Sequence record: NZ_CP072215.1
From: a plasmid
DNA length: 64,000 nucleotides
Reading direction: 5' to 3' (one strand)
A model generated the notes under the pieces. That model was not told the DNA's origin and ran no database searches. It saw nothing but the letters and a program-made list of their open reading frames with translations. The position numbers and the translations under genes were made by a program. Positions 24,872 through 48,214 of this stretch are shown one piece after another. The number at the start of each line of letters is the position of its first letter. Positions within the stretch are counted from its first letter, which is position 1.

Positions 24872-25120
24872 ATGGTAACAAACATTATTCAGATTGGAAA
24901 CAGCAAGGGGATAATACTTCCTTCCGAGATATTGAAACAGTTGCGTTTGTCCTTGAAATCGGCTGTGAGCATTTCTTTGGACGGGAACAATATTGTGATA
25001 AAGGCACAACCACGGCAGGGATGGGCGGAAGCTGCCAAACGTGCCCATGAGAATGGGGATGATGAGTTGCTTATCCCTGATGTGTTTGAGGATGAAAAGT
25101 TTGAGGATTGGACATGGTAG
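24872..25120 (+). CDS. mazE: MazE/AbrB-type antitoxin
   Basis: SpoVT/AbrB-like N-terminus (IQIGNSKGIILPSEIL). Overlaps the downstream toxin start. Confidence 0.7.
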   Translation: MVTNIIQIGNSKGIILPSEILKQLRLSLKSAVSISLDGNNIVIKAQPRQGWAEAAKRAHENGDDELLIPDVFEDEKFEDWTW

Positions 25121-25434
25121 AACAGTATGGAGTGTATTGGGTAGAGTTAGACCCTACCCGTGGGGGTGAAATGGCAAAGACACGGCCATGTGTTGTTGTA
25201 ACTCCTTCAGATTTGAATATGTACCTTACAATAGTAGTCATTGCTCCGATAACCTCCACCATAAGGAACTATCCTTACCGGGTTCTGTGTTCTGTAGCCG
25301 GGCGTGATGGGGAGATAGCCACGGATCAGATTCGCACGGTGGACAAAAGCCGGCTGAAAAGAAAGATTGGAGATTTGAATTTCAGTGAGATAAAAAGACT
25401 GAAGGAAGTGTTTCATCAAATGTTCTGTGAATAA
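25108..25434 (+). CDS. mazF: MazF/PemK-family endoribonuclease toxin
   Basis: GVYWVELDPTRGGEMAKTRPCVVV motif typical of PemK/MazF. Confidence 0.8.
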   Translation: MDMVEQYGVYWVELDPTRGGEMAKTRPCVVVTPSDLNMYLTIVVIAPITSTIRNYPYRVLCSVAGRDGEIATDQIRTVDKSRLKRKIGDLNFSEIKRLKEVFHQMFCE

Positions 25435-25486
25435 TGGAAAGTGTGCAAATAACAGGTTATGTAGCGTATTCAAAAAAGATATTATG

Positions 25487-25882
25487 AAGCCAACTACTTA
25501 TATTAATTGGGACGGTCTGAAAGACATTCCATTCTTCTACTGCGATACAAAGGAAGATGAAGAAAACAAGGATTTCGACATCTATTACCAGGGCAAGCTG
25601 GTGTTGCATGACTACAACCATTGCGGACACTACCTTTACACTGCTGCGCTGCTGTTCAGTAAAATCAGAAACATTACAGCCGACTGGGTGAACCTGCATA
25701 ACCTTTGGATTCTGCGTGATTGCGTGCGCGAGAATTACAATCACGGCATAGGAGTGGACGACCTTATTTTCGGAGAGAATTTCGATGGCAAGAACCTCGA
25801 TACACTCACACCGCTTACCAAGAAACGCTTTGATTATTTGTGTAAGCGGATTAAGGAACTTGACCCATACGCAACAATTTAA
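25487..25882 (+). CDS. Hypothetical protein
   Basis: ORF after the TA module. Start set at an internal Met (MKPTTY). Confidence 0.35.
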   Translation, partial: KPTTYINWDGLKDIPFFYCDTKEDEENKDFDIYYQGKLVLHDYNHCGHYLYTAALLFSKIRNITADWVNLHNLWILRDCVRENYNHGIGVDDLIFGENFDGKNLDTLTPLTKKRFDYLCKRIKELDPYATI

Positions 25883-25981
25883 CACTTCATTGGGCGAAGG
25901 CAGGGCTTGCTGCGGATGCCAGACTTTAAATAATCCATTGGATTAATTATCTTTGCACGCTAATTTTCAAATTATAAAGAA

Positions 25982-26266
25982 ATGACTAAATCGGAAATCG
26001 TAAAGGAAATATCTGCCAGAACCGGCATCGACGGCAAAGCGGTGCTTGCTGTTTTGGAAGGATTCATGAACGAGGTAAAGACTTCGTTGGGTAAGGAGGA
26101 AAATGTCTATCTTCGTGGATTCGGTAGTTTCATAGTGAAGAAGAGAGCGCAAAAGACAGCTCGGAATATCTCTAAGAATACTACTATGATTATTCCGGCT
26201 CATAACATACCGGCATTTAAACCGTCTGACGAATTTTTGAAAATGGTAAAACAACAGAACGCATAA
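25982..26266 (+). CDS. HU/IHF-family DNA-binding protein
   Basis: 94 aa, with the MTKSEIV...GFGSF...R.ARNP-like arm signature. Confidence 0.85.
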   Translation: MTKSEIVKEISARTGIDGKAVLAVLEGFMNEVKTSLGKEENVYLRGFGSFIVKKRAQKTARNISKNTTMIIPAHNIPAFKPSDEFLKMVKQQNA

Positions 26267-26278: not shown

Positions 26279-26551
26279 ATGAAAGATCAGTTACGATTAT
26301 TGAGAGACTGTATCAATAATGATCGTCCGGCAGTTGTCTTTCAGGGAGACGATTTTTGCGCTCCTGAGATTTTGGAAGCAGCAAAAGAAATTTATCGTAA
26401 ACATGGTTGTTCCGAAGAATTTCTTTTTGACTGGCAGCTGCTTATCAATGAGGTGAAGGCTTACCAGTTAGAAAGTCCGGCAACTGTCAAATTGCCGAAA
26501 CTCTCCCCGACAGAAACGGAACTGGTGCGGGAAGAGATGACTAAACGCTAA
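26279..26551 (+). CDS. Hypothetical protein
   Basis: 90-aa ORF in operon position after HU. Confidence 0.35.
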   Translation: MKDQLRLLRDCINNDRPAVVFQGDDFCAPEILEAAKEIYRKHGCSEEFLFDWQLLINEVKAYQLESPATVKLPKLSPTETELVREEMTKR

Positions 26552-26612: not shown

Positions 26613-26990
26613 TTAAAATGTTGGCGAACCTGCTTTTTTCGAAAGTTCCTGCCAATAGTTGAAGTCACTCGGTGAAAGATGCTCTTGCATCCAGTCACGC
26701 ATACCAATATCGTTTCTTTCGTTCACATATCTCGTAAACGGAATCATTGTCTTACATGCTTCAAATCCAAGCATTCTCATATGGCGTGAAATGTTGGGAG
26801 GAAGACCTTCCAACCACTCTTTATAATACATTATCAATCTGTTTTCTTGGATTGGAACCGCTTGTTGGTGGTAAATATAGCTGGCGTTTCCGATTCTAAT
26901 ATCTCTGGCCTTATTTTCCCGTTCTTCTTCAGGTAGCCGACTTAAATATTCAGCTTGTGCTATTCTGCATTTGGAGTTTGGATGTTCCAT
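26613..26990 (-). CDS. Hypothetical protein
   Basis: 125-aa ORF, last of three convergent minus-strand genes. Confidence 0.4.
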   Translation of the reverse strand: MEHPNSKCRIAQAEYLSRLPEEERENKARDIRIGNASYIYHQQAVPIQENRLIMYYKEWLEGLPPNISRHMRMLGFEACKTMIPFTRYVNERNDIGMRDWMQEHLSPSDFNYWQELSKKAGSPTF

Positions 26991-27004
26991 GGTATTTTAT
27001 ATAA

Positions 27005-27331
27005 TTAAGACTCTTCAATGATACGGTTCATCAAATCACATATTTTTTGGCAGCTATGACGGTCTGCGCAAGCAGGATAGGGGCATTTCTCAAAGGATGC
27101 CTGATTATCCGTAACTATGAAACCTCCGGAACGACGTACATAACTTACCGGATGAAAATAAATATCTTCCTTTTTCGGCCTATAAGTACATAGTCTTATA
27201 AGGCTGTTCAGCTCTTTGCAAATTTGCTCACATTTTTCTTTGGGATAATGTGGCAAATCACTGAATGCTTCGTAGGGGACAAAGGCAAATGCTTTGTCAT
27301 CCCACATGACAGGTGTGTAATTCTGTACCAT
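27005..27331 (-). CDS. Hypothetical protein (Cys/His-rich)
   Basis: 108-aa ORF. Confidence 0.4.
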   Translation of the reverse strand: MVQNYTPVMWDDKAFAFVPYEAFSDLPHYPKEKCEQICKELNSLIRLCTYRPKKEDIYFHPVSYVRRSGGFIVTDNQASFEKCPYPACADRHSCQKICDLMNRIIEES

Positions 27332-27376
27332 TTGTTATTTGGAATAAGGATGGCTGGCAGATTCCGTATTTCTGTA

Positions 27377-27631
27377 TCAGTTAGGTAATCCGTCACTATT
27401 TAAGTGCGCCTGGGCAAACTCCCGGAGGTTCGTTTCGGCAATGCACTTTTCATAAATCTCATCCAATACTTCTTGCATATTTTCTACTTTATTGAATTTT
27501 AAGGGGCTGCCGTTTGTTGCGGCTTGCCTTTCCAGTTGTTCGATGATACTGGGAAATATCCCACGCAATAAACCGACGGTAGCTACGGCTGTAGCTGGTT
27601 CTACCTCTATTGTAATCTTTTTCTTTTCCAT
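27377..27631 (-). CDS. Hypothetical protein
   Basis: 84-aa ORF. Confidence 0.35.
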   Translation of the reverse strand: MEKKKITIEVEPATAVATVGLLRGIFPSIIEQLERQAATNGSPLKFNKVENMQEVLDEIYEKCIAETNLREFAQAHLNSDGLPN

Positions 27632-27724: not shown

Positions 27725-28430
27725 ATACTGTGTTTTTGCGTTCACGCAGTATTCTTTCCCACCCTCCCCTTCATCGGAATGACTGTTCTCATTTCCGGTT
27801 TACCCGTAGTCATCCGCTATGCGGCTGATTATGGGCAAACCAGAAAAGAGAAGTTCCAAACGTGGGCGGGATTGCAATGGTCATCATCCGGAGCTTCGGC
27901 ATTGCCGAAACAACCTCCTTCTTCCGTATTGCAGCCCCGTCCTTTTACCGTTTGTCCCGGCAGTCCGTTGCTAACCCGTTCCCCCCTGCCACTTGTGGCA
28001 GGGAGATAGGAATACGGTTTTGCAGGCAAAACCGTATGGCTTGTTTTACTTTCCGTACTGCCCTTTTCCTAGTTTTCTGCCTCCCTTAATGTGCGTTTTT
28101 CATAGCCCCATCTGAGACCCTTTGTTTTTGAACGGCAAATTTATTTCGGTGGATGGATACGAAAGAGTTCCGGTCTTCGCCCTTTGTCCCGAAAAAAATA
28201 ACGCCGGACGGCTTCGCTGTCCCCAACATTTTTTGTCGTCCAAAACTTTTCTTAATCCCTCCTTCCTTATTGTTGTGTGCCGTAAAAAAAAGGCTCATAA
28301 ACTCAGATGGGGCATGAAAGCTCAAAAAAAAAGTCGGCAGAAAGAAAAGGCCATCCCGGAAAGGGGTTTTAAAAAAAGGTCTTTAAATCTAGCTGAAGCA
28401 TAAAATTAGAAGTTTAACAATCCCAAAAAA
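27725..28430 (+). repeat. Conserved structured non-coding leader element, copy C1 (about 700 bp)
   Basis: More than 95% identical to 30790-31485 and 39895-40590. Internal ORFs are not frame-conserved between copies because of indels. Several hairpins show compensatory substitutions between copies. Confidence 0.85.
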
Positions 28431-28439
28431 CAACGAGTT

Positions 28440-28919
28440 ATGTCACGAGTACACTATTTAGAAGGAGATTATGAACAGTTAGTTATTAATGAAACGATAG
28501 ACGGTCTTTTTTCCAGTTATCGTATAGACCGCAATTCATTGCCAAAAGGATTTTTCCTTTATGAGATTAGATGGGATGACAGCTTATCTTCATTGGCAGA
28601 GATTAGCCCCTCTGTGGTGGTGAATCATGCAGGTTCATTCATTACAAAGTCACCCCTTGAATTTGATGCAAACAATAGCATACGGATAACCTATACCAAT
28701 TTTATCGAGTTCTGCCAGTTTGGTGAGTGGGCTTATGAGAAACTGGCTGTATTGGATTGTAATTCCGGTAATGTTGCGGTGATAAGCCCAGACAGGAGAT
28801 TGCAGACCACTGAAGAGATTGAGATTTTTTTGAGTGGGCATTGTGGCTATCATCTGAGTGAGATTAATTGGATGGTGATGAAAGGCGATGTGCTGTTTTT
28901 GAACGAGAACGATTTTTAA
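28440..28919 (+). CDS. Hypothetical protein
   Basis: 159-aa ORF immediately downstream of leader copy C1. Confidence 0.45.
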   Translation: MSRVHYLEGDYEQLVINETIDGLFSSYRIDRNSLPKGFFLYEIRWDDSLSSLAEISPSVVVNHAGSFITKSPLEFDANNSIRITYTNFIEFCQFGEWAYEKLAVLDCNSGNVAVISPDRRLQTTEEIEIFLSGHCGYHLSEINWMVMKGDVLFLNENDF

Positions 28920-28975
28920 TGAGTATAACCGTAACTGCCTCTTGGAATGGGGCAATTACATAAAATATTATAAGT

Positions 28976-29239
28976 ATGAAGTGGATAGATAAGATGGTAG
29001 AACGCATTACCCGAAAAGAAACTGCTTTAAATGACCACTTTTGTGTAAATCGGCATACGGTTGTATGTCAGAGTGGTATGACTGATTATGTTTCTGTAAC
29101 GATTGATAATACCGATGGTTTTGATTTCGATTTTTGGACAAAACAACTTTGTTTTGAGAAGGACTGTAAATATCGCTCGGAGATAAAAGCGGCTTTTGAT
29201 AAAATCTATGGCACAAGGAATATAGAATGTTGTGAATAA
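28976..29239 (+). CDS. Hypothetical Cys-rich protein
   Basis: 87-aa ORF. Confidence 0.4.
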   Translation: MKWIDKMVERITRKETALNDHFCVNRHTVVCQSGMTDYVSVTIDNTDGFDFDFWTKQLCFEKDCKYRSEIKAAFDKIYGTRNIECCE

Positions 29240-29254
29240 TGAAGTCAGAAAAGT

Positions 29255-29980
29255 ATGATACCAAAGGAGATAATGAAACTTTATGAAAAGCTTGCTTTCA
29301 GTCGGGGATATGAAGAAGCCTTTCGGGATTTTTTGGATGTTTGTCTTTACTATTTGTCTGTCGGGATGTTGGCGGAGGATTATCGTAGAGTGGAAAAAAG
29401 ATATAAGCCATATGAAATGGAACTTTTTGTTCAAATGTTTTATAGGGTGTCTGAATATTCGGAAGGATTTTGCGATGTCTTGGGAGATATGTTCATGGAG
29501 TGTGTCAGTCATGGGAATAACGGACAGTTCTTTACCCCGATACACGTTGCTGATTTGATGGCATGTATGGGGGGAAATAGGCTGAAACCTAAACAGTCGG
29601 TCTGTGATTCGTGCTGTGGTTCCGGCAGGATGCTACTTTCCGCTGTAAAAAAATGTGCGGAAGAGAATGATGGAGGAAGGCTTTTTTGTTATGGCTCGGA
29701 TATAGATTTGATTTGTGTAAAGATGACCGTTGTCAATCTGATGATGAATAGCGTACCCGGTGAAGTCGCATGGATGAATACATTGACAATGCAGCATTGG
29801 AGAAGTTATCATATAGATTTACAGCTGATAGCCGGAGTATGGTTGCCTATTTTAAAGATAACGGAAGCAGGTGACACTTCTTTTATTAGGAAACTTGAAA
29901 ATGCAATGGAGGATAATTCTGAATTGAAGAGGTCGATTCAGAGCAACGCAAGGGCTACGCAGCTGACTTTTGATTTTTGA
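29255..29980 (+). CDS. N6-adenine DNA-methyltransferase-like protein lacking the catalytic NPPY/F region (truncated or decoy)
   Basis: HsdM/N6_Mtase-type motifs NGQFFTP and the AdoMet motif I (DSCCGSGRMLL) are present. The protein ends about 90 aa after motif I and no (N/D)PP(F/Y/W) motif is found. Confidence 0.55.
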   Translation: MIPKEIMKLYEKLAFSRGYEEAFRDFLDVCLYYLSVGMLAEDYRRVEKRYKPYEMELFVQMFYRVSEYSEGFCDVLGDMFMECVSHGNNGQFFTPIHVADLMACMGGNRLKPKQSVCDSCCGSGRMLLSAVKKCAEENDGGRLFCYGSDIDLICVKMTVVNLMMNSVPGEVAWMNTLTMQHWRSYHIDLQLIAGVWLPILKITEAGDTSFIRKLENAMEDNSELKRSIQSNARATQLTFDF

Positions 29981-30009
29981 CAAGATAAATATGTAAAAAG
30001 GATTTTGGT

Positions 30010-30333
30010 ATGAAAGCAATAAGAACAAAAGAGGTGAATGAGAACGTCAAAGCGGCGAACAGTTGTTTGCGTAAAGCGAAATGGCAGGCTAAGGAATTGG
30101 CTGTTTTTACAGGTGAAGTAGTGCGTCTGATGGATAAGGAAGGGCATTCTCTACAAGGGTTCTTTAATCGGGTGGAGTTTGTTCTGGTGGACGGCACTAT
30201 TAAATTCCGTGTAGTTATAAATCCTATTCTTGAATGTGAGAACTGTATAATGGCTTCTTGCCATGAAGACTATCTTTATGAGGTGGTCTCGGTGGAAAAG
30301 TTTACCTATAAAAATTATAGGTATCATTTGTAA
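30010..30333 (+). CDS. Hypothetical protein
   Basis: 107-aa ORF. Confidence 0.4.
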   Translation: MKAIRTKEVNENVKAANSCLRKAKWQAKELAVFTGEVVRLMDKEGHSLQGFFNRVEFVLVDGTIKFRVVINPILECENCIMASCHEDYLYEVVSVEKFTYKNYRYHL

Positions 30334-30686
30334 TGATATTGTATTTTAATGATTATAAACTGATTTATATTATAACAATGATGGGCAAAATTAATAATAT
30401 TCCCGTTTTGAATGAAGATGTTATTCGTTTGGTTGTACTCAATGAGGAAATTATTGGGTATATCTATCCACGAAGGACTTCTTATGTGGTGGCATTGGAG
30501 ATAAAGCCGGGACGTACTACCTCTTTGGCTACATCTGTCAATAAACAATGCATGGTTTTGTTGAGTGATAAGGTTCGTTTGGCCACGGAACAGGATTTCG
30601 ATGATTTTCATATATGCTTTGATGGTTTCAGAAATAACACTATGTATTGTTATAATCAGGGAACGGAACCTATATACCTTCAATGA
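30333..30686 (+). CDS. Hypothetical protein
   Basis: 117-aa ORF, start overlapping the upstream stop. Confidence 0.4.
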   Translation: MILYFNDYKLIYIITMMGKINNIPVLNEDVIRLVVLNEEIIGYIYPRRTSYVVALEIKPGRTTSLATSVNKQCMVLLSDKVRLATEQDFDDFHICFDGFRNNTMYCYNQGTEPIYLQ

Positions 30687-30789
30687 AGCACATTCTCCCT
30701 TCTTTTGGATTAGGGAAGGGAGGGTATTTTGCTGTCCGCTACTTTTTGGCAAGCACCCCAAAAAAGTAGCAAAAAACGCTTGGAGTTAC

Positions 30790-31485
30790 TGGTAATCCCA
30801 TTAATTTGCGTTCACGCAGTATTCTTTCCCACCCTCCCCTTCATCGGAATGACTGTTCTCATTCCCGGTTTACCCGTAATCATCCGCTATGCGGCTGATT
30901 ATGGGTAAACCGGAAAAGAGAAGTTCCAAACGTGGGCGGGATTGCAATGGTCATCATCCGGAGCTTCGGCATTGCCGAAACAACCTCCTTCTTCCGTATT
31001 GCAGTCCCTTCCTTTTACCGTTTGTCCCGGCAGTCCGTTGCTAACCCGTTCCCCCCTGTCACTTGTGGCAGGGAGATAGGAGTATGGTTTTGCTTGCAAA
31101 ACCGTATGGCTTGTTTTACTTTCCGTACTGCCCTTTTCCTTGTTTTCTGCCTCCCCTAATGTGCTTTTTTCATAGCTCCATCTGAGAGCCTTTGTTTTTG
31201 AACGGCAAATTTATTTCGGTGGATGGATACGAAAGAGTTCCGGTCTTCGCCCTTTGTACCGAAAAAAATAACGCCGGACGGCTTCGCTGTCCCCAACATT
31301 TTTTGTCGTCCAAAACTTTTCTTAATCCCTCCTTCCTTATTGATGCGTGCCGTAAAAAAAAGGCTCATAAACTCAGATGGGGCATGAAAGCTCAAAAAAA
31401 AAGTCGGCAGAAAGAAAAGGCCATCCCGGAAAGGGGTTTAAAAAAAGGTCTTTAAATCTAGCTGAAGCATAAGTTTAATTTTAAT
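30790..31485 (+). repeat. Conserved structured non-coding leader element, copy C2
   Basis: See copy C1. A perfect stem CCGGTTTACCC...GGGTAAACCGG is present in this copy. Confidence 0.85.
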
Positions 31486-31497
31486 AGATAAAAGACT

Positions 31498-40590: not shown

Positions 40591-40612
40591 ACAAACTAAG
40601 TAGCAGAAGTAT

Positions 40613-40804
40613 ATGCAAATCATTCAATTTGTTTTTTCGGTCATCATCGCTCTTTGTGCAGTGGCTATGTTTGTCGGAGCGGTAATAACGCCAAGTCCGA
40701 TAAAGGTTGTGTCGGTTACGTTGTTGGCTCTTATTTGCCTATTCTCCTTGTTTCTCGTGAAATTGGCTTATTGTGAAATGAAATCTAAAAATGATATACT
40801 ATGA
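40613..40804 (+). CDS. Small membrane protein
   Basis: 63 aa with two TM helices. Confidence 0.35.
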   Translation: MQIIQFVFSVIIALCAVAMFVGAVITPSPIKVVSVTLLALICLFSLFLVKLAYCEMKSKNDIL

Positions 40805-41211: not shown

Positions 41212-41212
41212 T

Positions 41213-42460
41213 ATGAAACCCAAGACAAAATTACAAATGGAAATCGTGAATGGGAGCAGGAAGTTAGCTCCCGTTTCAGAGGCTCAAAAGCGTTATGCCT
41301 ATAAACATTGCTTTGTGCATTATTTCAAGCGTGATGCAAAGGGGAATTGCTTTTGTTTGGATTGTGGGCATACATGGCGGGATAAGGAAGATAAGAAAAA
41401 CTGTAAATGTCCTCATTGCGGTATGAACCTGAAATTGGAGAATAGCAGGAAAAGGACGGCTGTATATAAAGAATATTTTTGTGTGATTACTACATACAAG
41501 CAATATCAAGTTATCCGTTTTTTTATGGTGGACTGCCGGCTGAAAAAAGGGTCTCCGGCTAATTACTTTATAATTGAGGCGGTACAGTGTTGGATGAATA
41601 AAGAGGGCAAGACAGAAACGCTGTCTTTGCTGCGGGGCATGTCTATATTTTATTACGATGCATGGATATATGGAAGTTCTTTGGAATTGCGTAAGCGGAA
41701 TGTGCATCATGACCGTATTTATGATATTTGCCCGGCAGTTATCTATCCGAGAATGAAAGTGATACCCGAACTTACGAGGAATGGATTTAAGGGTGCCTTT
41801 TATGATATTTGTCCGAGTTCCTTCTTTATGACATTATTAACTGATAATCGGATGGAGATATTATATAAGGCAGGGCAAATGAATTTGTTCTTGAGATTTT
41901 TAGAGAGAAAATACGGTATAGATAAGTATTGGACGTATGTAAAAATCTGTTTAAGACATGACTATGTGATACATGATGCGGACTTGTGGCTGGACTATGT
42001 GGATATGCTGATAGAAAATAAATTGGATGCGAGAAATCCTCATTATTTGTGTCCGTTGAATGTAGAAGAAGCGCATGATTGGGTGATGGGGAAATGTAAG
42101 AAAAAATATTCTGAAAAGGATGAAAAAGACTATATTGCTGCCAAATCACGTTTCTTTAATCTTTCGTTTGCGGATGGAAATATTATGGTTCGGGTATTGG
42201 AAAGCCTTTCGGACTTTTACAAAGAGGGAAAGTTGCTGCATCATTGTGTATTCAGCAACGCCTATTATAAGAGAGAAGATTCGTTGATAATGTCGGCAAC
42301 GGTGGATGGAAGGCGCATGGAAACGGTGGAGTTTTCACTTAGCAGGATGGAGGTGTGCCAGTGTCGTGGAAAGTCTAACCAATTATCAGCCTATCATGAC
42401 CGGATTCTGAATTTGGTACGGGATAATATACCGTTGATAAGGGAAAGGATGGTAGTGTAA
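41213..42460 (+). CDS. PcfJ-like protein
   Basis: 415 aa with an N-terminal Cys4 zinc-ribbon-like motif (CLDCGHTW...CPHCG) and conserved PcfJ-family C-terminal residues. Confidence 0.65.
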   Translation: MKPKTKLQMEIVNGSRKLAPVSEAQKRYAYKHCFVHYFKRDAKGNCFCLDCGHTWRDKEDKKNCKCPHCGMNLKLENSRKRTAVYKEYFCVITTYKQYQVIRFFMVDCRLKKGSPANYFIIEAVQCWMNKEGKTETLSLLRGMSIFYYDAWIYGSSLELRKRNVHHDRIYDICPAVIYPRMKVIPELTRNGFKGAFYDICPSSFFMTLLTDNRMEILYKAGQMNLFLRFLERKYGIDKYWTYVKICLRHDYVIHDADLWLDYVDMLIENKLDARNPHYLCPLNVEEAHDWVMGKCKKKYSEKDEKDYIAAKSRFFNLSFADGNIMVRVLESLSDFYKEGKLLHHCVFSNAYYKREDSLIMSATVDGRRMETVEFSLSRMEVCQCRGKSNQLSAYHDRILNLVRDNIPLIRERMVV

Positions 42461-42559
42461 TGAATAGCCCACACATCTAAATGTGTGGGAGTTCTTTTTT
42501 GGAAGACGCCCAAAAAAGAACCCCAAAAAACGTTGTCGCTACACATCGTTACGCTCGGA

Positions 42560-43045
42560 TTATTTGCTTGTCGGCTTTAGTTTGCCGATACATTTTTCCA
42601 TGTCGGGGGACAATAGGAAAGAAGCCGTCTTTTTCTGCTGCACCCCTGAGTGTGGCTGGACGATGGCATACCTGCATTTTAATATCTTGCCGATAACTTC
42701 CGTACTGTCACGGTGCAGGTACATGGCTTTCATGGCATCCGTTGCTTTCAGGCTTTTTTCGGCTTCCATATAGGCGGAAAAGGACGGTTTGAATAAGGCA
42801 CGGGGACTTTCCGCTTTCTGTATGACAGCGGATAATTGTGCGCTTTTGTTGTTCAGGTAGCACAGGCTGTCCGATACGGTGACGTCTTCTGTTTCCAACA
42901 CTTCCAGTAGTTCGAACTTTAAATCCGTCCAGGTGCCGTGAGAATCTGTCTGAACCCATTCCGCAATGGCCTTCTCATAGCCGGGTTTGCTGCATGAGGA
43001 AAAGGCAATGAGCAGCATACAAAAAAATAAATGCTTGATATTCAT
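42560..43045 (-). CDS. Hypothetical lipoprotein
   Basis: Signal peptide plus lipobox (FSSCSK). Confidence 0.45.
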   Translation of the reverse strand: MNIKHLFFCMLLIAFSSCSKPGYEKAIAEWVQTDSHGTWTDLKFELLEVLETEDVTVSDSLCYLNNKSAQLSAVIQKAESPRALFKPSFSAYMEAEKSLKATDAMKAMYLHRDSTEVIGKILKCRYAIVQPHSGVQQKKTASFLLSPDMEKCIGKLKPTSK

Positions 43046-43098
43046 ATTGATCTGATTTTATAGGTTGTCGTATTATGTGATGGAGCAAATCTATGAGG

Positions 43099-44124
43099 TT
43101 ACTGGCCGTCCTCCGTGGAGGAACAGATGCCACACGAGATTTTCAGATCATCGTTCCAATCCTTGTTTTCCGAAAGTTCGACGTTCTTCAGTTTCCGTAC
43201 CTTGTTGCGGAGTTCATCGTTACTCAGGCTCTCGACATCAGTCGTATCGCCATGAAAGTAACGATGCAGCCATAGAGTGTACTTGTGCCCTTGTTTGTCG
43301 TTGTCAAAGATGCTCCGGAGCTCCTTTACCTGGTTCTTGTCAAGAATCAGGCGTAATAGCCTCATTTGTCCTTCCGTGAATGTCCCTTCCGTAGATACAT
43401 ATACAAGATTGAGGTCGTTTCCGGAATGGCGTAATTGATAGTGGGAGATACAGTCTATAAATGACTCCCCAATGTAGAGAATGTCTATCGGGCGGCTTTT
43501 GTCATGGTTGCTGGTCGCCAGACAGTCGAACTTGCCACCGATAATCCCTTTGAATGTTTCATTTCGTTGAGAAATGGCTTGCACACCGTTTTCATTGTAC
43601 ATCTTGATGCACACGTTGCGGTAAACACTCCCTTTGTTCTTTACCTCACGGATAAAGAAAGTGTCTTTGAAGAACCGGCTTTCAATGCTTTCTTTCAGGA
43701 TACCTCTTTTCTGGAGATAATTGCCCTTGTAGGGTTGTAGCTGGCTCAAGTAGAATTGAAGTTCGTCCGCTCTCATGCTTGTGTTACCTACTTCATACCG
43801 GCTTTTTTCGGGTGTCGTGATGCGGTTGGTGTTGATGTAGTTCTGAAGGATCTCCCCCACCTCGCGCAAGGACGGCATTTTTCCGGTTGTTTCAAATAGA
43901 TGTTCCTGCATCAGATCCATGATACTGCGGCCACGCACGCTGTCACTATGCACGTCCCAATAGGTGTATTGGTTCTGCGAGTTCCGCTTGATGACGATGG
44001 TATGCGTTCCGTTGCTCATTTTGGGACAGGAGTTGGAAGAGCCTTCCACGATTTTCCATCCTAGTTCCAGCAGGAAATCGGGCAGAGAAATGGTTGTTTT
44101 TATCTGATTGAAATCGACTTTCAT
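43099..44124 (-). CDS. Toprim-domain primase-like protein (TraP-like)
   Basis: Acidic toprim motifs (YIGESFIDCIS, DND) in the C-terminal half. Size and context match ICE primases. Confidence 0.55.
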   Translation of the reverse strand: MKVDFNQIKTTISLPDFLLELGWKIVEGSSNSCPKMSNGTHTIVIKRNSQNQYTYWDVHSDSVRGRSIMDLMQEHLFETTGKMPSLREVGEILQNYINTNRITTPEKSRYEVGNTSMRADELQFYLSQLQPYKGNYLQKRGILKESIESRFFKDTFFIREVKNKGSVYRNVCIKMYNENGVQAISQRNETFKGIIGGKFDCLATSNHDKSRPIDILYIGESFIDCISHYQLRHSGNDLNLVYVSTEGTFTEGQMRLLRLILDKNQVKELRSIFDNDKQGHKYTLWLHRYFHGDTTDVESLSNDELRNKVRKLKNVELSENKDWNDDLKISCGICSSTEDGQ

Positions 44125-44259
44125 AACGTTGACTGGATTAGTTGAATCTCATTTTATCTGAGCTTAGATTATAAATGAGAAAGATTATCTTTCATAAAGA
44201 TAAGAAATATCATCTAAATATGGAAGAGAAAGTATATGTTTTTTGATTCGTCTGCATTT

Positions 44260-44679
44260 TTATTTCAAGGTACTGTAAACCAAATCAACAGTAGTGTCTA
44301 TACCGGGAACGGCCTCCAACTGTTTGCTCTGGTTGAATACGCTTTCCCCGTCTTTTTTTATCTGCATGGTGATGATAGCACTCTCTTTTGAATAGAGAAT
44401 GCCTTGCACGGTAATTTGGCTGACAGGCTTTTCCGTGCTGTATTCCGCTTTATCGGTGAAACTCTCATCTACGGAAGCTGCGGAGGTACCGGTGCGTTCG
44501 TTCCTGAATCTCACGCCGTCAAGATTATATATATGCACACTGCCTTTGGGTGAGGAACCGGTTACGGCTACGGTGATGTGATACATGCCGGCTTTGTCTG
44601 TTTCCGATTGGATTTCCTCTTTGTTGCATGAAGCGGCCAATAAGCAGGCTGCCGCTAATAATGAATGAATTTTTCTCAT
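44260..44679 (-). CDS. Hypothetical lipoprotein
   Basis: Signal peptide plus lipobox (LLAASCNK). Confidence 0.45.
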   Translation of the reverse strand: MRKIHSLLAAACLLAASCNKEEIQSETDKAGMYHITVAVTGSSPKGSVHIYNLDGVRFRNERTGTSAASVDESFTDKAEYSTEKPVSQITVQGILYSKESAIITMQIKKDGESVFNQSKQLEAVPGIDTTVDLVYSTLK

Positions 44680-44701
44680 GGTAGGATTCTTTTGTTGAAT
44701 G

Positions 44702-46648
44702 TTATCGGATGATTTTTTGTTCTGTCTTGTGTGTCCCGGTTGGCGGAACTGCTGACTTTTCTTTTAATTTGTCCTCTATCTTTTTGAGGATGGCGTTGAC
44801 ATCTTCAATGATTTTGATGTAGTTCTGCTGGATAATCTCTTCCAGGATTTCCAGTTCCATCTCTTCTTTGCCGTTGCCCAGTTTGACCGGTAAGGAGAAA
44901 CGGGGTATCTCCTTCTCTTCAAAACGGCACATATCCATCTGCACGCTGAAGAATGGCGGCTTGCCTCCGGCAATCTTGCCAATGAAGTGTCCGGCTGCTT
45001 GTCCGGCAATGTCCCTTGCCTTTAAGACTTTTTCTTTTTGCAGGCTCTCCGTGACACTGTTATTGCCACCGGCTTGGTGTGAATAAGATTCTTGCGCTTC
45101 TTTCTTCTCCCCAAGCAAGTTCTCGATGTCTTTGGCGGTCTTCTCATTTCCGGTCATACCGTAAGCCTGCGTTCCGCAGGAGGCTTTCAGGATGTTGGCA
45201 CTTTTCTCTCCATAGTCCCTGACCGCTTGGTTGAAGTCCTGAACGGCGAGAATGGTAGCGACATTGTGCTTCCGGGCGGTTCCGATGAAAGTGTCAATGC
45301 CTTGCAACAGGATGGTCGGAAATTCATCTACCATGAATATGCTGGTCGCTTTGCCGGGATTGTTCATCTGTGACATCAAGACGCTGCCGATGCAGGAAAT
45401 AGCAGGGGAAACGGCTTCCTTGATGGTGGGCGCATTGCCTACGCATAACAGCGTTGGGTGTTCCTTGTTGGTTATATCCAAAGAGAACTCTTCTTCGGGA
45501 AGTGGCGACAACACCCAGAAGATGTATTTGTTGTTCAGGAGTACCAACGGAGTCTGTGCGGATGATACGGCTCCGGCTGTCTGCTGTTGTGCACCCAGTT
45601 TCCAGGCGGTCAGCATGGAGGACATGTTCAATGCGATTTCAGGATCTTCCGACAGCCAGTGGAATACTAGGTTGCTGTCAGAAAGGGCAAGGGCTATCAC
45701 ATGGGGCAGCGTACAGATACCAAGCTTCCTTTCCTTGAAACATTTATAGGCGATTGAATAGACGTAGTTGATGGCATTGTTGGCCCAAAAGTCGGTCTTT
45801 TCCTTCCAGCTTGCTTCCAGATTCTTCATCAGTGTCATGATGATATTGCGGATGAATAGCGATTCGTTTCCCTTTGACATGTATTGCGGAGAAAGTACGT
45901 TCACCCTGACCGTGCGTGACATATCCACAAAGTTGATATAGGCGAAACGGGGTGTTTCCATCCCCTTGTTCCGGAAATGTTCGATGCTTCCGTATGCGAT
46001 ACGTGAGAGGATGGGTGACTTGTCCTTGGTGGGATCACCCTCCCAATCGTACACGAATCCGGCATAGTTGCGCTCGGCGCACTGGTAGATGATTCCCTTG
46101 ATCCAGCTCTCTGATTTACCGCTTCCCGGACCGCCGTCGATATAGACATTCTGCTGCGGCTTATGGATGACCAGCGGCCCGGAGGCGGTTTCAAAGCGGA
46201 AGTAGAAAGCCGATTCTTCCCGGCTTAACCCGAAAATGCTATCATCGGATTGGGCATGACGCCGGATGAAATAAGGCAGAGTCTTGATGACAAGCAGCGT
46301 GTACGCTACGAATAGAATGGGAAATACAAATAGGTTATACCACGCTGATAACCGGCTGAATCCGACAACCAGCATGGATGCCGTAACCAGTGTCATACTG
46401 GTGTAAACCCATTTCTTGTTTTCGTCTTTCACTTTGCCAACCGGAAAGAGAAAAGCGAGGCCTCCGATCAGGATAACGTAGAGAAACCGGAATAGGATAT
46501 CCTTCTCCATCAGCCTTTCCCACATGGCCGGATTACGTAGTGGAGCGTATAATCCCGTAACGATAGCCCACTGAAACAGTACGGCTGTCCCGATGAGCGT
46601 GGATAGCAGGATCAGGATGAATGACAGGTCTTTCTTCTCTCTTTCCAT
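44702..46648 (-). CDS. Type IV coupling protein (VirD4/TraD-like; Bacteroides MobC-type)
   Basis: N-terminal TM helices, Walker A (GGPGSGKSES), a Walker B-like region, and a length of 648 aa. Confidence 0.85.
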   Translation of the reverse strand: MEREKKDLSFILILLSTLIGTAVLFQWAIVTGLYAPLRNPAMWERLMEKDILFRFLYVILIGGLAFLFPVGKVKDENKKWVYTSMTLVTASMLVVGFSRLSAWYNLFVFPILFVAYTLLVIKTLPYFIRRHAQSDDSIFGLSREESAFYFRFETASGPLVIHKPQQNVYIDGGPGSGKSESWIKGIIYQCAERNYAGFVYDWEGDPTKDKSPILSRIAYGSIEHFRNKGMETPRFAYINFVDMSRTVRVNVLSPQYMSKGNESLFIRNIIMTLMKNLEASWKEKTDFWANNAINYVYSIAYKCFKERKLGICTLPHVIALALSDSNLVFHWLSEDPEIALNMSSMLTAWKLGAQQQTAGAVSSAQTPLVLLNNKYIFWVLSPLPEEEFSLDITNKEHPTLLCVGNAPTIKEAVSPAISCIGSVLMSQMNNPGKATSIFMVDEFPTILLQGIDTFIGTARKHNVATILAVQDFNQAVRDYGEKSANILKASCGTQAYGMTGNEKTAKDIENLLGEKKEAQESYSHQAGGNNSVTESLQKEKVLKARDIAGQAAGHFIGKIAGGKPPFFSVQMDMCRFEEKEIPRFSLPVKLGNGKEEMELEILEEIIQQNYIKIIEDVNAILKKIEDKLKEKSAVPPTGTHKTEQKIIR

Positions 46649-46659
46649 GGCCGTTGCTG

Positions 46660-47043
46660 TTATTGGGGTTGTCCGGATGCCGTTCCGTCACCGCTCTCTT
46701 TTTTCTCTGCCTTTCCCAGTAACTCAATGCGTGAGACGGTCAGGCTGACGGATGGGATGTGGCTACCGTCATCCTTCTGGAATACATCGGCATACACATC
46801 GCCGCAGACATATACCTGTGTCCCTTTTTTCAGATACTCAAAGACTTTACTCTCGTAATTCACGAAACAGCATACCCATAGGGTCTGTTCCTCGTTGTTC
46901 ACGTTCTTGTACTTGGTGGATACATGGAAGTTGAATCCTTTTCCGTTCTTGTTCTGCCGGGCATCCGCACCGACATAACCGATAATTTGTCCTGTAAACA
47001 TAATGATGGTTTTTAAAAGTTTATAATCCGAGCTGTGGCTCAT
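46660..47043 (-). CDS. ssb: Single-stranded DNA-binding protein
   Basis: OB-fold SSB core (FTGQIIGYVGADARQNKNGKGFNFHVSTKYKN...LWVCCF). Confidence 0.8.
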   Translation of the reverse strand: MSHSSDYKLLKTIIMFTGQIIGYVGADARQNKNGKGFNFHVSTKYKNVNNEEQTLWVCCFVNYESKVFEYLKKGTQVYVCGDVYADVFQKDDGSHIPSVSLTVSRIELLGKAEKKESGDGTASGQPQ

Positions 47044-48214
47044 TCATATTTTTCATGGCTGGCTCCGCTTCCATGGAAGGCAGCGAAATGCCGAAAGTGC
47101 TGTGTAGCGTTTCAAGGTTGTCGGCTGTAGGATGGTTTGCCGCAACACTTTCCAATAACCGTGATGAAGGGGTAAAACCTTCGTTTTTCATCTGCTCCAA
47201 TACCGGACGGTTGTCTTGCAGGACGGCCTGCGTGAACCGTTCCTCCGGTGTGAGGTACTGTTCCATCCGTGCGGTATGTTCCTGAATCATATTGCTGGCT
47301 TTTCCTACATCGGCAAGGATGTTGTAGATGAATTTGGGATCTTCTTTCAAGGCTCCCAGCCAGTTTTTTAGATACATGGCATTTTCTTCCCGGATATGGG
47401 TGGATATTCCCAGGCTTTGCCCGACGGTAGCGGAGGTGAGTTCGGCAACCAGTTCCTCTTTGGCATATTGCTTGTCTCCGAAAATCACGCCTTTTTCCCG
47501 GTTCAGATGCTCAGGTTCTCCAGTCGAGTGCGCCATCTCATGCAGTAGTGTGGAGTAGAAATTCTCTCCGTCCTTAAACTGCCCCTTCAGGGGTACGACG
47601 ATATGGTTATCTTCTCCCCTTGCATGGTAAGCACTATTTCCTTCCTTGGAATAAATGGGGCAGATCCATTGCTGTTCCCGTACCATCGCATCAATCAGAG
47701 GCACGGTGAGCATCCCTTGCTCGTCCTTGATGGCCGGTATCTTGAATTGCTCCTTCAATGCTTCCCATTTCTCCGGTTTCGTTTCCTGAAGATTGGTCTG
47801 CTGTACGTTGAACACATTGTATGTCTTCAGAAACGGCGTGACCTTATATTCCTGCTGCTCGTTTTTATCCAGGTTCTTATATACGTCGAAAGGTATTTTC
47901 TTTCCGTTCTTGTCTCTTACTGAGAAATTCCAGTAAATGACTGGGAATGACTTTTCTCCTTTCAGTATGTTAAGGCCGTTGTCTTTGGCTTGCATGAAGG
48001 TCATATAGACCGGCAGGCTGTACTGCTCTTTTTCCGAAAGTAGAAACAACATGAAGGAATTTACTCCGTTGTAGGTTCTTCCCTCGATATTTTGCGGAAG
48101 TCCCCCACCCTTTATCCCGAACCAAGGCTTTTGCCAGTTGTCTTCCACCTGCTTTATCTTTTCGATCATCAGTTCGGCGAAACGCTGTAATGCTTTATCA
48201 CTTGCTGTATCCAT
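47021..48214 (-). CDS. ardC: ArdC-like antirestriction protein (N-terminal ssDNA-binding domain + zincin-like metallopeptidase, DUF1738)
   Basis: HExxH motif (HEMAHSTGE) in the C-terminal half and an ArdC-N-like N-terminus. Confidence 0.75.
   Translation of the reverse strand: MDTASDKALQRFAELMIEKIKQVEDNWQKPWFGIKGGGLPQNIEGRTYNGVNSFMLFLLSEKEQYSLPVYMTFMQAKDNGLNILKGEKSFPVIYWNFSVRDKNGKKIPFDVYKNLDKNEQQEYKVTPFLKTYNVFNVQQTNLQETKPEKWEALKEQFKIPAIKDEQGMLTVPLIDAMVREQQWICPIYSKEGNSAYHARGEDNHIVVPLKGQFKDGENFYSTLLHEMAHSTGEPEHLNREKGVIFGDKQYAKEELVAELTSATVGQSLGISTHIREENAMYLKNWLGALKEDPKFIYNILADVGKASNMIQEHTARMEQYLTPEERFTQAVLQDNRPVLEQMKNEGFTPSSRLLESVAANHPTADNLETLHSTFGISLPSMEAEPAMKNMNEPQLGL

Follow-up and report, generated by a model that had tools for sequence, protein, structure and literature searches.

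The block of genes at positions 24872-48214 of the window analysed here, a 64,000-nt stretch of plasmid DNA (sequence record NZ_CP072215.1), was described in an initial annotation as an accessory island with the composition of a conjugative leading region. This description raises the questions of what element carries the block, on which side of the origin of transfer it lies, and how its gene cassettes are expressed.

A mixed cassette array on a pMMCAT-family plasmid

The region proves to be an array of gene cassettes carried by pMMCAT, a conjugative plasmid widespread in gut Bacteroidales. Positions 24800-48300 match, at 100% identity, circular plasmid records of 72-111 kb from four species, which plasmid record comparison assigns to the pMMCAT family; the Bacteroidales ICE proposed at first is contradicted by this identity. 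An ICE was also rejected on the full plasmid annotation (taken from NZ_CP102939.1; window coordinate = record coordinate + 3373), which lists rep, ParA and tra genes without any chromosome at the flanks. Features in common with the published account of this plasmid family (Garcia-Bayona et al., bioRxiv 10.1101/2024.04.29.590671) are an Mfa fimbrial locus with LuxR, a radical-SAM pair, five toxin-antitoxin pairs and a 'putative anti-CRISPR', and the window fits the eps-deficient variant of ~72-76 kb reported there from China. A term search of the same paper returned neither 'leading region' nor oriT, ssb or repeated leaders.

Pfam confirmed the gene content listed initially (mazEF, HU, HsdM-like fragment, hipBA, ssb, PcfK/PcfJ, toprim, T4CP and ArdC), while most other ORFs had no family match in Pfam, PHROGs or NCBIfam. 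On the plus strand, mazE (24872-25120) and mazF (25114-25434), in a segment 87% identical to 5.6-kb Bacteroides plasmids, are followed by an ORF (25427-25882), HU (25982-26266) and a further ORF (26279-26551). Cassette 1 (28440-30686, plus) contains LPD28 (28440-28919, Pfam), an 87-aa ORF, an HsdM-like methyltransferase fragment (29255-29980) and ORFs of 107 and 117 aa, with a terminator-like hairpin (30692-30725) and a conserved hairpin (30735-30777) downstream. The methyltransferase fragment, whose best PDB match is EcoR124 HsdM, covers positions 21-121 of the 311 in the Pfam N6_Mtase profile and has FFTP and motif I (CDSCCGSG); the NPPY/F motif is absent from it. Cassette 2 (31498-32680, plus) consists of a ShosT-like phosphoribosyltransferase gene (31498-32064), with weak matches to type I PRTs, and a SLOG/YpsA-family gene (32048-32680; Pfam YpsA; PDB 2nx2, E = 4.5e-10). 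Next come a minus-strand IS4-family insertion sequence (32825-34180; transposase 32874-34037; 40-bp terminal inverted repeats at 32825-32864 and 34141-34180), missing in the related contig L002 and in plasmid NZ_CP103120.1, and a plus-strand DUF3791/DUF3990 pair (34474-34923 and 34920-35402, Pfam) that has no structured leader. The remaining plus-strand units are an ssb paralogue (36276-36611), inactivated in the window by an in-frame TAG at codon 57 and intact in NZ_CP102939.1, where this codon is TGG (111 aa); hipB and hipA (36781-37119 and 37116-38393); a 132-aa ssb (39460-39858) followed by a terminator-like hairpin (39861-39881); and a cassette at 40613-42530 with a 63-aa membrane-like ORF, PcfK (40801-41211), PcfJ (41213-42460) and terminator hairpins at 42468-42489 and 42488-42530.

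The unidirectional arrangement claimed for the region holds for the cassettes; the opposite strand carries three ORFs at 26613-27631, the IS4 element and the tail of the transfer backbone (42560-48214), which is convergent with the cassettes. This tail comprises a 161-aa ORF, toprim (43099-44124), a 139-aa ORF, T4CP (44702-46648), a backbone ssb (46660-47043) and an ArdC-N plus zincin gene (47021-48214), all four named genes by Pfam, in an order common to CP103159.1, NZ_CP103120.1 and CP126057.1; upstream the minus-strand backbone runs on into DUF3945, TraN, TraM and the rest of the tra operon. At the other end, the same-strand block has an upstream extension at 20460-22489 (plus), with RadC/JAB (20460-21155, matched as RadC by both Pfam and NCBIfam), an ORF (21323-21742), a partial leader core (21775-22019) and another ORF (22091-22489).

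Gene classes of plasmid leading regions are indeed present, namely ssb, ArdC, an MTase-like gene, toxin-antitoxin modules and a PcfK-domain protein. In Pfam, the Cas9 inhibitor AcrIIA9 is assigned the PcfK domain (PMC6739104), and PGAP names a fused PcfK homologue in CP126057.1 'AcrIIA9 family'; no AcrIIA9 entry of NCBIfam matched the PcfK protein of the window. By domain, the experimentally known anti-defence families in the island are ArdC-N plus zincin and PcfK. A purely anti-defence reading is nevertheless at odds with mazEF and hipBA, which are addiction modules, and with PADLOC, which matched the phosphoribosyltransferase at 31498-32064 to ShosT (E = 1.2e-10) and the DUF3791/DUF3990 pair to the defence candidate PDC-M13 (E = 1e-19 and 6e-53). 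The cargo is therefore mixed, with anti-defence-linked genes (PcfK, ArdC), toxin-antitoxin or defence-like ones (ShosT-like, PDC-M13) and unknowns. Of the two cassettes singled out earlier as anti-defence candidates, cassette 1 (28440-30686) received no functional assignment, and cassette 2 resembles a toxin-antitoxin or defence pair. DprA-like ShosA has been placed in the SLOG superfamily, as is the second gene here. The cassette shares with ShosTA (PMC11961720, PMC12961424) a two-gene organization in which the first gene has a PRTase fold matching ShosT; it differs in that the second gene matches YpsA and not the PADLOC ShosA model, in that the 188-aa PRTase seems to be without the fused pyrophosphatase domain of ShosT, and in its location on a plasmid behind a hairpin leader, the predicted promoter.

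The proposal that the set is modular and exchangeable was borne out. A single leader core precedes at least seven first-gene families in metagenomes, and related contigs and plasmids differ by whole cassettes, absent or added. Near-identical leader copies could supply the homology for cassette gain, loss and swap. Deletion junctions in relatives (32826|38566 and 32774|36477) lie at the IS end and within coding or leader sequence rather than at matching points of the leaders. An integron-like array was rejected, since Pfam revealed no tyrosine integrase or attI among the window ORFs and the recombinases are of the resolvase family.

Transfer polarity and the position of the array

The statement that the relaxase lies outside the window is correct for the main mobC-relaxase, which begins ~50 bp past the right end (record 60676-62411, plus strand, in NZ_CP102939.1) and is divergent from traA, but a MobA/VirD2 relaxase with MobC was detected by Pfam inside the window, at 15370-16706 (relaxase itself 15370-16317), and if this one drove transfer the polarity would be reversed. 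From gene order, the main oriT is expected in the AT-rich intergenic region between traA (ParA) and mobC, the left part of which occupies 63703-64000, with mobC and the relaxase just past the window; no nic site was recognised in the traA-mobC intergenic sequence and its inverted repeats. With oriT so placed, first the tra operon and then the island lie on the side opposite mobC-relaxase. The usual rule is that the relaxase enters the recipient last (PMC11541004). As the main mobC-relaxase is on the plus strand, this rule makes the minus strand the probable transferred strand and thus the template for the cassettes. Given the rule, we infer that the island is on the leading side of the main oriT, with its plus-strand genes templated by the strand transferred.

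The island extends from ~21 kb to ~39 kb from oriT, behind the whole tra operon. Counting ORFs from oriT, ArdC is about the 20th, the backbone ssb the 21st, PcfJ/PcfK the 26th and 27th and the next ssb about the 29th, these being the only such genes among the first ~30; the remaining island spans ORFs 30-55. Both here and in CP103159.1 the cassettes share the strand of the relaxase gene, and in NZ_CP103120.1 and CP126057.1 they are again convergent with the tra/T4CP backbone. The array thus resembles the leading-region islands of Samuel & Burstein (Nature 2024) in lying on the non-relaxase side of oriT, in the presumed use of the transferred strand as template, and in shared classes (ssb, ArdC, MTase-like, toxin-antitoxin, an Acr-domain protein and many unknowns), whereas it differs in its distance from oriT, in including ShosT-like and PDC-M13 genes, in the phylum of its host and in having a transfer system of MPF-B type.

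Conserved hairpins with an inverted -7 box

Each cassette was said to be headed by a structured element. This is so for five units, but not for the rest of the ~ten transcription units. The leaders belong to two families. Family A has three copies of ~690 nt with 95-99% identity, A1 (27735-28439), A2 (30805-31497) and A3 (39907-40612), and family B two, B1 (35476-36275) and B2 (38496-39459), the latter with an additional module of ~190 nt homologous to the 5' part of leader A. They head the LPD28-to-MTase-like unit, the PRTase-SLOG pair, the two ssb genes and the TM-PcfK-PcfJ cassette, all of them without an ordinary promoter. Other units have ordinary plus-strand boxes, at 24831 for mazEF (TTTG-N19-TATATTTG), at 25948 for HU (TAnnTTTG) and at 36742 for hipBA (TTTG-N20-TATTTTTG). 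A sixth, diverged copy with a partial A-type core (21775-22019) precedes the ORF at 22091; the 3' end of leader A is 75% identical to 21977-22099, and the inverted box in this core is a 5-of-6 match only (AACCTTTG), as in the diverged A subfamily to which it belongs.

Every leader ends in a conserved hairpin of 200-290 nt. A box scan found exactly one TAnnTTTG, the Bacteroides -7 box, per leader, in all five on the strand opposite the genes, and no plus-strand TAnnTTTG between leader and ATG in any of the five. Leader A1, which folds with z = -8.4 against shuffled controls, consists of a run of hairpins in its 5' half (27735-28100) and a hairpin core at 28106-28312; its minus-strand box TAAATTTG is at 28143-28136, with a -33 TTTC 17 nt upstream, and the predicted mRNA 5' end at ~28284 would leave a 156-nt A-rich 5' UTR. 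The corresponding core, inverted box and predicted 5' end are at ~31176-31382, 31213-31206 and ~31354 in A2, and at ~40279-40485, 40316-40309 and ~40457 in A3. In B1 the hairpin domain is at 35974-36260, the minus-strand box TATATTTG at 36003-35996 and the predicted 5' end at ~36242 (~34 nt 5' UTR), and in B2 they are at ~39158-39444, 39187-39180 and ~39426.

Homologues of the A-core were gathered through the downstream 5' UTR motif alone. The exact inverted box is kept in 75 of 79 distinct A-cores, with AA, CC or TT as 'nn', and among 83 distinct extracts it lies at one fixed site in 71 and ~60 nt closer to the motif in eight. All 11 B-cores keep it as well ('nn' = AT, AA, AC or CC), even copies whose flanks can no longer be aligned. 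Among box-bearing homologues only the 'nn' bases of TAnnTTTG vary. A nearly invariant -33-like TTTC lies 17-18 nt upstream of the box in A-cores; no recognisable -33 element was found in B-cores. Conservation of the A-core ends at the stem base beyond the box and extends rightwards to the ATG, and leader cores are 75% identical between plasmids, as against 59% for their PcfK proteins.

Across 32 representative sequences, pairing in the 207-nt A hairpin amounts to 92.4%, compared with 44-57% when partners are slid, and compensatory changes occur at 14 pairs; on four of five measures the observed values lay beyond all 500 shuffles. In the B domain the compensatory pairs number 17. As minus-strand DNA, the A-core folds at -40.4 kcal/mol (z = -4.6) and the B-core at -41.3 kcal/mol (z = -3.9), and in both families TAAAT or TATAT is left unpaired in an internal loop while the TTG pairs into the basal stem. 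The A and B cores have no sequence similarity and the same geometry of box and hairpin. The A structure contains 154 plus-strand G-T pairs versus 28 A-C pairs, G-T being equivalent to A-C mismatches on the minus strand, a count biased by the derivation of the structure on the plus strand; in folding energy the minus strand has only a slight advantage. A sigma-70 consensus scan gave no site within the hairpin cores, and Rfam searches no match, STAXI included. The geometry does not extend to PcfK loci at large: in 46 IMG/VR PcfK contexts there were 32 inverted and 14 forward boxes, a strong downstream-pairing arm was present in only 5 of 31, and overall the contexts showed no difference from controls (p = 0.49).

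Candidate single-strand promoters and rival explanations

In duplex DNA the box should fire leftwards, away from the cassette genes. Should the relaxase enter last, the cassettes would have the transferred strand as their template, and on this footing the hairpins can be read as Frpo-like single-strand promoters: the five hairpins probably (roughly 55%) allow the cassettes to be transcribed off the single strand as soon as it has arrived. The minus strand of the window would enter the recipient 5' to 3' from the oriT between traA and mobC, so that the body of a cassette arrives first and its hairpin after it. The hairpin would then fold on the single strand, with the promoter arm as non-template strand, the -33 element and spacer as duplex, the first five -7 bases in a pre-opened internal loop and the start site in the basal stem. 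The promoter would be of the Bacteroides sigma-A type (-33 TTTC, a 17-18 nt spacer and -7 TAnnTTTG, on the strand opposite the genes), and RNA polymerase could leave the hairpin base along the transferred strand into the cassette ahead of the complementary strand, whose synthesis hairpin transcripts might also prime.

This reading is modelled on the Frpo/ssi elements of F, ColIb-P9 and pESBL (Masai & Arai 1997; PMC11541004; PMC12672017), which are likewise large imperfect hairpins upstream of leading-region operons, on the transferred strand (here the minus strand, assumed to be transferred), with promoter elements rebuilt in the stem and transcription out of the hairpin base into the genes (here predicted). 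Frpo in F is directly upstream of ssb, as is the B-type hairpin. Both systems have several sequence classes per plasmid, one hairpin per operon; on pESBL, hairpin promoters of three classes serve six leading-region operons, one for each (PMC12672017). The leaders differ in using the Bacteroidota -33 TTTG/-7 TAnnTTTG rather than TTGACA/TATAAT, in their sequence as far as Rfam with STAXI goes (Frpo itself lies outside this comparison), in their length of 700-960 nt, which includes a long additional 5' half that is structured, and in belonging to an array behind the tra operon, 21-39 kb from oriT.

The box and its -33 element also make a complete promoter in duplex DNA, and the leaders might be ordinary double-strand regulatory regions in which this promoter yields a leftward antisense or non-coding RNA, or serves the ORFs at 26613-27631, while the hairpin is a structured 5' UTR and the cassettes are expressed by read-through or from non-consensus promoters. 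The three minus-strand ORFs downstream of the leftward A1 promoter, the many plus-strand G-U pairs among the proposed pairs and the highly structured 5' halves of the leaders would suit this explanation, which we still consider unlikely: between plasmids, conservation reaches no further than ~35 nt past the leftward start, the operon at 26613-27631 comes with a box of its own (27657), A2, A3, B1 and B2 lack a minus-strand gene that they could drive, and the small minus-strand ORFs that PGAP calls in the leaders are not conserved. RNA structure, for which Rfam offers no counterpart, does not explain why an opposite-strand TAnnTTTG should be conserved, with 'nn' free, in two unrelated families. 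It is very improbable that the hairpin arms are the inverted repeats of Bacteroides-type invertons assembled in the OFF state, in which a resolvase-family enzyme would flip the promoter to face the cassette. Like such invertons, the leaders have a promoter between inverted repeats that points away from the genes as assembled, and the plasmid has serine recombinase genes (two of the resolvase/invertase family, at 9681-10319 and 22602-23198); invertible promoters are common in Bacteroides and occur on pMMCAT itself, and flipping the inner segment in silico places TTTC-N17-TAAATTTG straight towards the cassette. Yet the 103 A-core instances drawn from independent metagenome assemblies and plasmids are all unflipped, and at ~75 plasmid places no record exceeds the 74% match to the flipped form expected from the quasi-palindrome. 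The arms are bulged and are not known to resemble any invertase site, and the interior is paired from end to end, with compensatory changes (helices 4-8), a feature that an inverton could do without.

Frpo also primes DNA synthesis, and the leaders could mainly be DNA-processing or recombination elements, that is, single-strand initiation sites, or homology blocks or sites for integron-like exchange, with expression from elsewhere. Priming and transcription are compatible, so this explanation overlaps with single-strand promoters. A toprim protein and three ssb genes on the plasmid, the variable cassette content of relatives and leader copies that are 97-99% identical within the plasmid and ~75% identical between plasmids, a difference suggesting homogenisation by recombination, would all be in keeping with such a role; as the main function it appears quite unlikely, because recombination needs neither a promoter consensus nor its placement at one fixed site of the hairpin, the integron integrase and attI are missing in Pfam searches, and the deletion junctions do not fall at equivalent leader positions. 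It is improbable, finally, that the region is a mosaic of plasmid cargo (addiction modules, defence-like systems and polyvalent-protein remnants) whose likeness to leading regions is compositional only, with no role in entry. Such an origin would agree with mazEF, hipBA, the ShosT-like module and PDC-M13, which resemble toxin-antitoxin or defence systems, with the ongoing decay seen in the IS4 element and the nonsense-mutated ssb, and with the distance of the array from oriT. Against it stand the uniform orientation relative to the relaxase in all relatives examined, the convergence of tra operon and cassettes also in pBUN1, a plasmid of different cargo with an unplaced relaxase, the conservation of the leader cores under selection, and the presence of ssb, ArdC and the PcfK (AcrIIA9-domain) protein.

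On balance, with better than even odds, the region is best explained as the establishment or accessory array of a pMMCAT-family conjugative plasmid, its cassette proteins having roles that we infer from their families. In its leaders, the Frpo/ssi principle of F and IncI1 plasmids may have been rebuilt with the Bacteroidota promoter consensus.

Plasmid background and cargo of the cassettes

Circular plasmids of B. cellulosilyticus (72.5 kb), B. zhangwenhongii, P. vulgatus and P. distasonis carry the region 24800-48300 with 100% identity, and what the initial annotation had taken for an ICE is thus a plasmid. Partial similarity extends to several further Bacteroidales plasmids, which cover only 35-66% of the region. 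The full annotation matches pMMCAT, in particular the eps-deficient variant (bioRxiv 10.1101/2024.04.29.590671), in having an Mfa fimbrial locus with LuxR, a radical-SAM pair, several toxin-antitoxin pairs, a complete Bacteroidetes-type tra operon and a rep cluster. pMMCAT is reported to be among the most pervasive human-gut conjugative plasmids and to cross several Bacteroidales species inside one person; the paper describing it (bioRxiv 10.1101/2024.04.29.590671) mentions no leading region, oriT, ssb or repeated leaders.

To the left of the island, two inverted RhuM-resolvase pairs (8603-10319, plus strand; 22602-24438, minus strand, with a truncated RhuM) flank a 12-kb segment that contains a radical-SAM 'mobile pair', an MBL-fold protein, AraC regulators, a MobA/VirD2 relaxase with its MobC (15370-16706, minus strand), a DDE transposase fragment, a probable rep gene (18439-19647) and RadC. 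It may have been inserted as a module, or may be able to invert. Between the probable rep gene and RadC, in a gap of 812 nt, the Flavo-1 RNA family matches weakly at 20191-20274 (minus strand), below threshold with 26.9 bits (gathering score 42, E = 0.096).

ORFs were called over the whole window and scanned against Pfam, which upheld the gene list first drawn up from the sequence. Pfam matches on the plus strand comprise mazE/mazF (24872-25434), HU (25982-26266), LPD28 (28440-28919), an N6_Mtase fragment (29255-29980), a YpsA/SLOG protein (32048-32680), DUF3791/DUF3990 (34474-35402), hipBA (36781-38393), ssb (39460-39858), PcfK (40801-41211) and PcfJ (41213-42460); those on the minus strand are a toprim protein (43099-44124), the coupling protein (44702-46648) and ArdC (47021-48214). 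A second, very divergent ssb (46660-47043, minus strand) shares 27% identity with the ssb at 39460-39858, and an IS4 element with 40-bp terminal repeats occupies 32825-34180. Most other ORFs had no match in Pfam, PHROGs or NCBIfam. The 'pseudo-ssb' (36276-36611) is interrupted by one TAG at codon 57 (36444-36446), which reads TGG in the otherwise near-identical plasmid NZ_CP102939.1, so its inactivation is very recent. The mazEF segment (24802-25910) is ~87% identical to many 5.6-kb cryptic plasmids of B. fragilis, B. ovatus, B. thetaiotaomicron and P. vulgatus, which suggests that small and large Bacteroides plasmids exchange modules.

Two cassettes had been described as lacking recognisable functions and proposed as anti-defence candidates. 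In the first (28440-30686) this holds for all but LPD28 and the N6_Mtase fragment, which carries an FFTP motif and motif I (CDSCCGSG), lacks NPPY/F, and has EcoR124 HsdM as its closest solved relative. It does not hold for the second (31498-32680), in which a PRTase matching ShosT (PADLOC, E = 1.2e-10) is followed by the SLOG/YpsA gene. This pair resembles the ShosTA toxin-antitoxin/defence pair, whose ShosA is DprA-like (PMC12961424). DUF3791/DUF3990 matches the defence candidate PDC-M13 (PADLOC). Elsewhere in the island, ArdC belongs to a known anti-restriction family. The Cas9 inhibitor AcrIIA9 has PcfK as its Pfam domain (PMC6739104), and a fused PcfK homologue in the comparison plasmid CP126057.1 is annotated as AcrIIA9 family. 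A direct AcrIIA9 assignment of the window's own PcfK was discarded, as it had no NCBIfam match and none of its 120 best homologues bears that name. The cargo of the array is mixed: ArdC and PcfK fit the anti-defence locus proposed at the outset, but the ShosT-like and PDC-M13 matches are defence-like. Taken as a whole, the initial annotation was confirmed in part as observation and supported in part as interpretation.

Structured leaders and their inverted -7 box

Five long non-coding elements, here called leaders, each head a cassette. Family A has three copies that are 95-99% identical (27735-28439, 30805-31497 and 39907-40612) and family B has two (35476-36275 and 38496-39459); a partial, diverged A copy lies upstream of ORF 22091. 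The first A leader folds far above shuffled sequence (z = -8.4). No Rfam family scored at gathering threshold anywhere in the window, and none of relevance appeared at E <= 1 over 17-50 kb; STAXI, considered as a candidate, is an Enterobacteriales motif without a match to the leaders.

Conservation between diverged plasmids is limited to the 3' ~320 nt of the leader (~75% identity for A, ~71% for B), called here the A-core and B-core. The B-core stands upstream of ssb in every annotated relative, and the A-core upstream of many different genes: in metagenomes it heads at least seven first-gene families, among them LPD28, a PRTase, a small membrane protein and several without annotation, and on this plasmid three leader copies with 97-99% identity precede three unrelated cassettes. 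In comparison with the orthologous PcfK locus of another plasmid the leader is 75% identical and the PcfK proteins 59%. Related contigs lack whole units, with junctions of 32826 to 38566 or of 32774 to 36477. The variety of first genes and these missing units bear out the proposal that the cassettes are modular. The junctions came from a genome-collection scan with the motif CCCGGCAGTCYGTTGCTWACCC, common to A and B, which returned only five short MAG contigs, informative on junctions and not on diversity.

In their 5' halves the leaders consist of successive strong hairpins (27735-28100, 30805-31170, 39907-40270, 35476-35950 and 38496-39130), and both families share two motifs there, TTTCCCACCCnCCCnTTCAnCGGAnTGACTG and CCCGGCAGTCYGTTGCTWACCC; these halves show no conservation in diverged plasmids, and may serve as insulator or terminator, priming site or recombination substrate. 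PGAP calls minus-strand small 'hypothetical proteins' inside every leader (27829-28029, 30899-31099, 35747-35944, 38551-38712 and 38931-39128). We rejected these as genes, since their translations are unrelated between diverged leaders; they are likely false calls due to the purine-rich minus strand. A conserved GGGGTTCTTTTTTGG...CCAAAAAAGAACC-like hairpin with T/A runs on both sides directly follows RadC (21197-21239), the first cassette (30735-30777) and PcfJ (42488-42530), and is probably a bidirectional terminator at the 3' ends of cassettes.

We scanned for the Bacteroides -7 consensus TAnnTTTG (as cited in PMC4747536). Ordinary plus-strand boxes precede mazE, HU and hipB. In all five leaders, by contrast, the only box is on the minus strand, opposite to the cassette genes, and none occurs on the plus strand before the ATG. 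A -33-like TTTC lies on the same strand 17-18 nt upstream of the box and is nearly invariant in A-cores; B-cores have no clear -33 element. To avoid bias, metagenome homologues were gathered by the downstream 5' UTR motif alone, which yielded more than 102 loci, every labelled one from human gut. The exact inverted box is present in 75 of 79 distinct A-cores, with AA, CC or TT as 'nn', and one A subfamily has only a 5-of-6 box. It occupies one fixed position in 71 of 83 distinct extracts and lies ~60 nt nearer the motif in 8 others. All 11 B-cores keep the inverted box ('nn' being AT, AA, AC or CC), even where their flanks cannot be aligned. A conserved plus-strand promoter in the A-core was also sought and dismissed: no conserved position carries an exact box, and the 5-of-6 matches are scattered.

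Hairpin architecture and alternative explanations

The A-core forms an extended hairpin of 207 nt (28106-28312), the pairing of which is kept at 92.4% over 32 representative sequences, compared with 44-57% in slid controls. It shows 14 compensatory pairs and a covariation score of 0.139 (0.03-0.05 in controls), and on four of five measures the observed values lay beyond those of all 500 shuffles. In the B domain (35974-36260), 17 pairs are compensatory among 11 sequences. As minus-strand DNA both cores fold with significant stability (z = -4.6 for A and -3.9 for B), and although unrelated in sequence they are predicted to adopt the same arrangement: the box begins with five unpaired bases (TAAAT or TATAT) in an internal loop, its TTG is paired into a basal stem of ~25-35 bp and, in A-cores, the -33 element and spacer lie within the next stem. 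Wobble counts and energies were indecisive as to which strand folds. Taking the G of the box as -7, mRNA 5' ends are predicted at ~28284, 31354 and 40457 (family A) and at ~36242 and 39426 (family B); at 28284 the plus strand passes from pyrimidine-rich to A-rich.

A promoter pointing away from its genes could belong to an inverton, its hairpin arms bracketing an invertible segment. Flipping the inner segment in silico does create a near-consensus forward promoter, and the plasmid carries resolvase-family genes, but the flipped state was found in none of 103 assembled instances, no plasmid matched the flipped form, and the interior is itself paired along its full length, with covariation; we consider this explanation unlikely. 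A rival account takes the box at face value, as a leftward promoter in duplex DNA combined with structure acting at the RNA level. Against it, conservation stops ~35 nt beyond the leftward start, four of the five leaders offer nothing to drive, and the small ORFs called there by PGAP are unrelated between leaders. To the left of the first A leader, three conserved minus-strand ORFs of hypothetical proteins (26613-27631) have a box of their own (27657-27650) and would also lie downstream of the leader's promoter if it fired leftwards in duplex DNA. The leaders might also be priming or recombination sites, a role compatible with single-strand promoter activity and not exclusive of it; integron machinery is absent, and the variant junctions do not fall at equivalent leader positions.

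Inferred transfer polarity and proposed expression from the incoming strand

By annotation, traA (ParA; 62947-63702, minus strand) is divergent from the main mobC-relaxase operon, which starts on the plus strand ~50 bp past the right window end, so that the main oriT is expected at ~63.7-64.05 kb. The relaxase had been placed outside the window, which is right for the main one, but a second lies inside, in the RhuM-resolvase-bracketed segment. Under the field rule that the relaxase gene is in the lagging region (PMC11541004), it is the minus strand that would be transferred, traA leading; the plus-strand cassettes (20.4-42.5 kb) would then be templated by the transferred strand and point to oriT. 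We infer this polarity from the rule, and it agrees with the requirements of the hairpins. The traA-mobC intergenic region is AT-rich with many inverted repeats and has no recognisable nic consensus. The tra operon lies between oriT and the array, which is 21-39 kb away from oriT; counted from oriT, ArdC, ssb, PcfJ/K and the next ssb take ORF positions 20-29 and the remaining island genes come later.

The B. fragilis plasmid CP103159.1 has the same layout, with relaxase, oriT and the tra operon through ArdC-ssb-T4CP-toprim followed by convergent cassettes; the convergent backbone-cassette part is alike in NZ_CP103120.1 and CP126057.1, and tra operon and cassettes also converge in pBUN1. Plasmids sharing this backbone are non-independent evidence on layout. 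pBUN1 was dropped as an independent test of polarity, since its own relaxase could not be placed and its MobV gene is part of an inserted element.

The Frpo promoter of the F plasmid, a hairpin acting on single-stranded DNA, is located upstream of ssb. For the IncI1 plasmid pESBL, start sites were mapped experimentally in large stem-loop promoters of three sequence classes, one for each of six leading-region operons; the same paper regards promoters of this kind as probably tuned to the host sigma factor (PMC12672017). By analogy, the leader hairpins would be their Bacteroidota counterpart. On a single minus strand the box-bearing arm would become the non-template strand, and transcription would leave the hairpin base and run into the plus-strand genes. 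The most likely mechanism, to which we assign a probability of roughly 0.55, is that Bacteroides-type single-strand promoters drive exchangeable early-gene cassettes on pMMCAT. A wider formulation, for which we consider the odds even, is that these would be the first Frpo-like promoters of the Bacteroidota, that they arose at least twice independently (A and B) on the phylum's -33/-7 consensus as portable heads for any cassette, and that they allow pMMCAT and its relatives to express ssb, an AcrIIA9-family protein, a ShosT-like module and unknown proteins by zygotic induction off the incoming strand. Our literature search found no paper joining Bacteroidales plasmids with leading regions or single-strand promoters.

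An extension of this scheme to all PcfK loci was abandoned: across 46 IMG/VR contexts there were 32 inverted boxes to 14 forward ones, but hairpin geometry was non-significant overall. On a human gut metagenome contig of chromosomal or ICE type (L119, 9424-10004), a PcfK-PcfJ cassette divergent from a tra operon has a single inverted box (TACCTTTG) in a predicted long hairpin and no forward box, but this box might just as well be the promoter of the tra operon.

Most documented single-strand promoters come from enterobacterial plasmids, and to our knowledge the establishment of Bacteroidota conjugative elements in their recipients is essentially unstudied. If the proposed mechanism is true, a version built on the Bacteroides consensus would extend the single-strand promoter principle to another phylum, with exact start sites, and would allow a search for long hairpins whose internal loop holds an inverted TAnnTTTG. 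The HsdM-like fragment, LPD28, the ShosT-like pair and several unknown proteins would then be candidate establishment or anti-defence factors, and such candidate early proteins bear on gene flow in the microbiome and on engineered conjugative delivery into Bacteroides.
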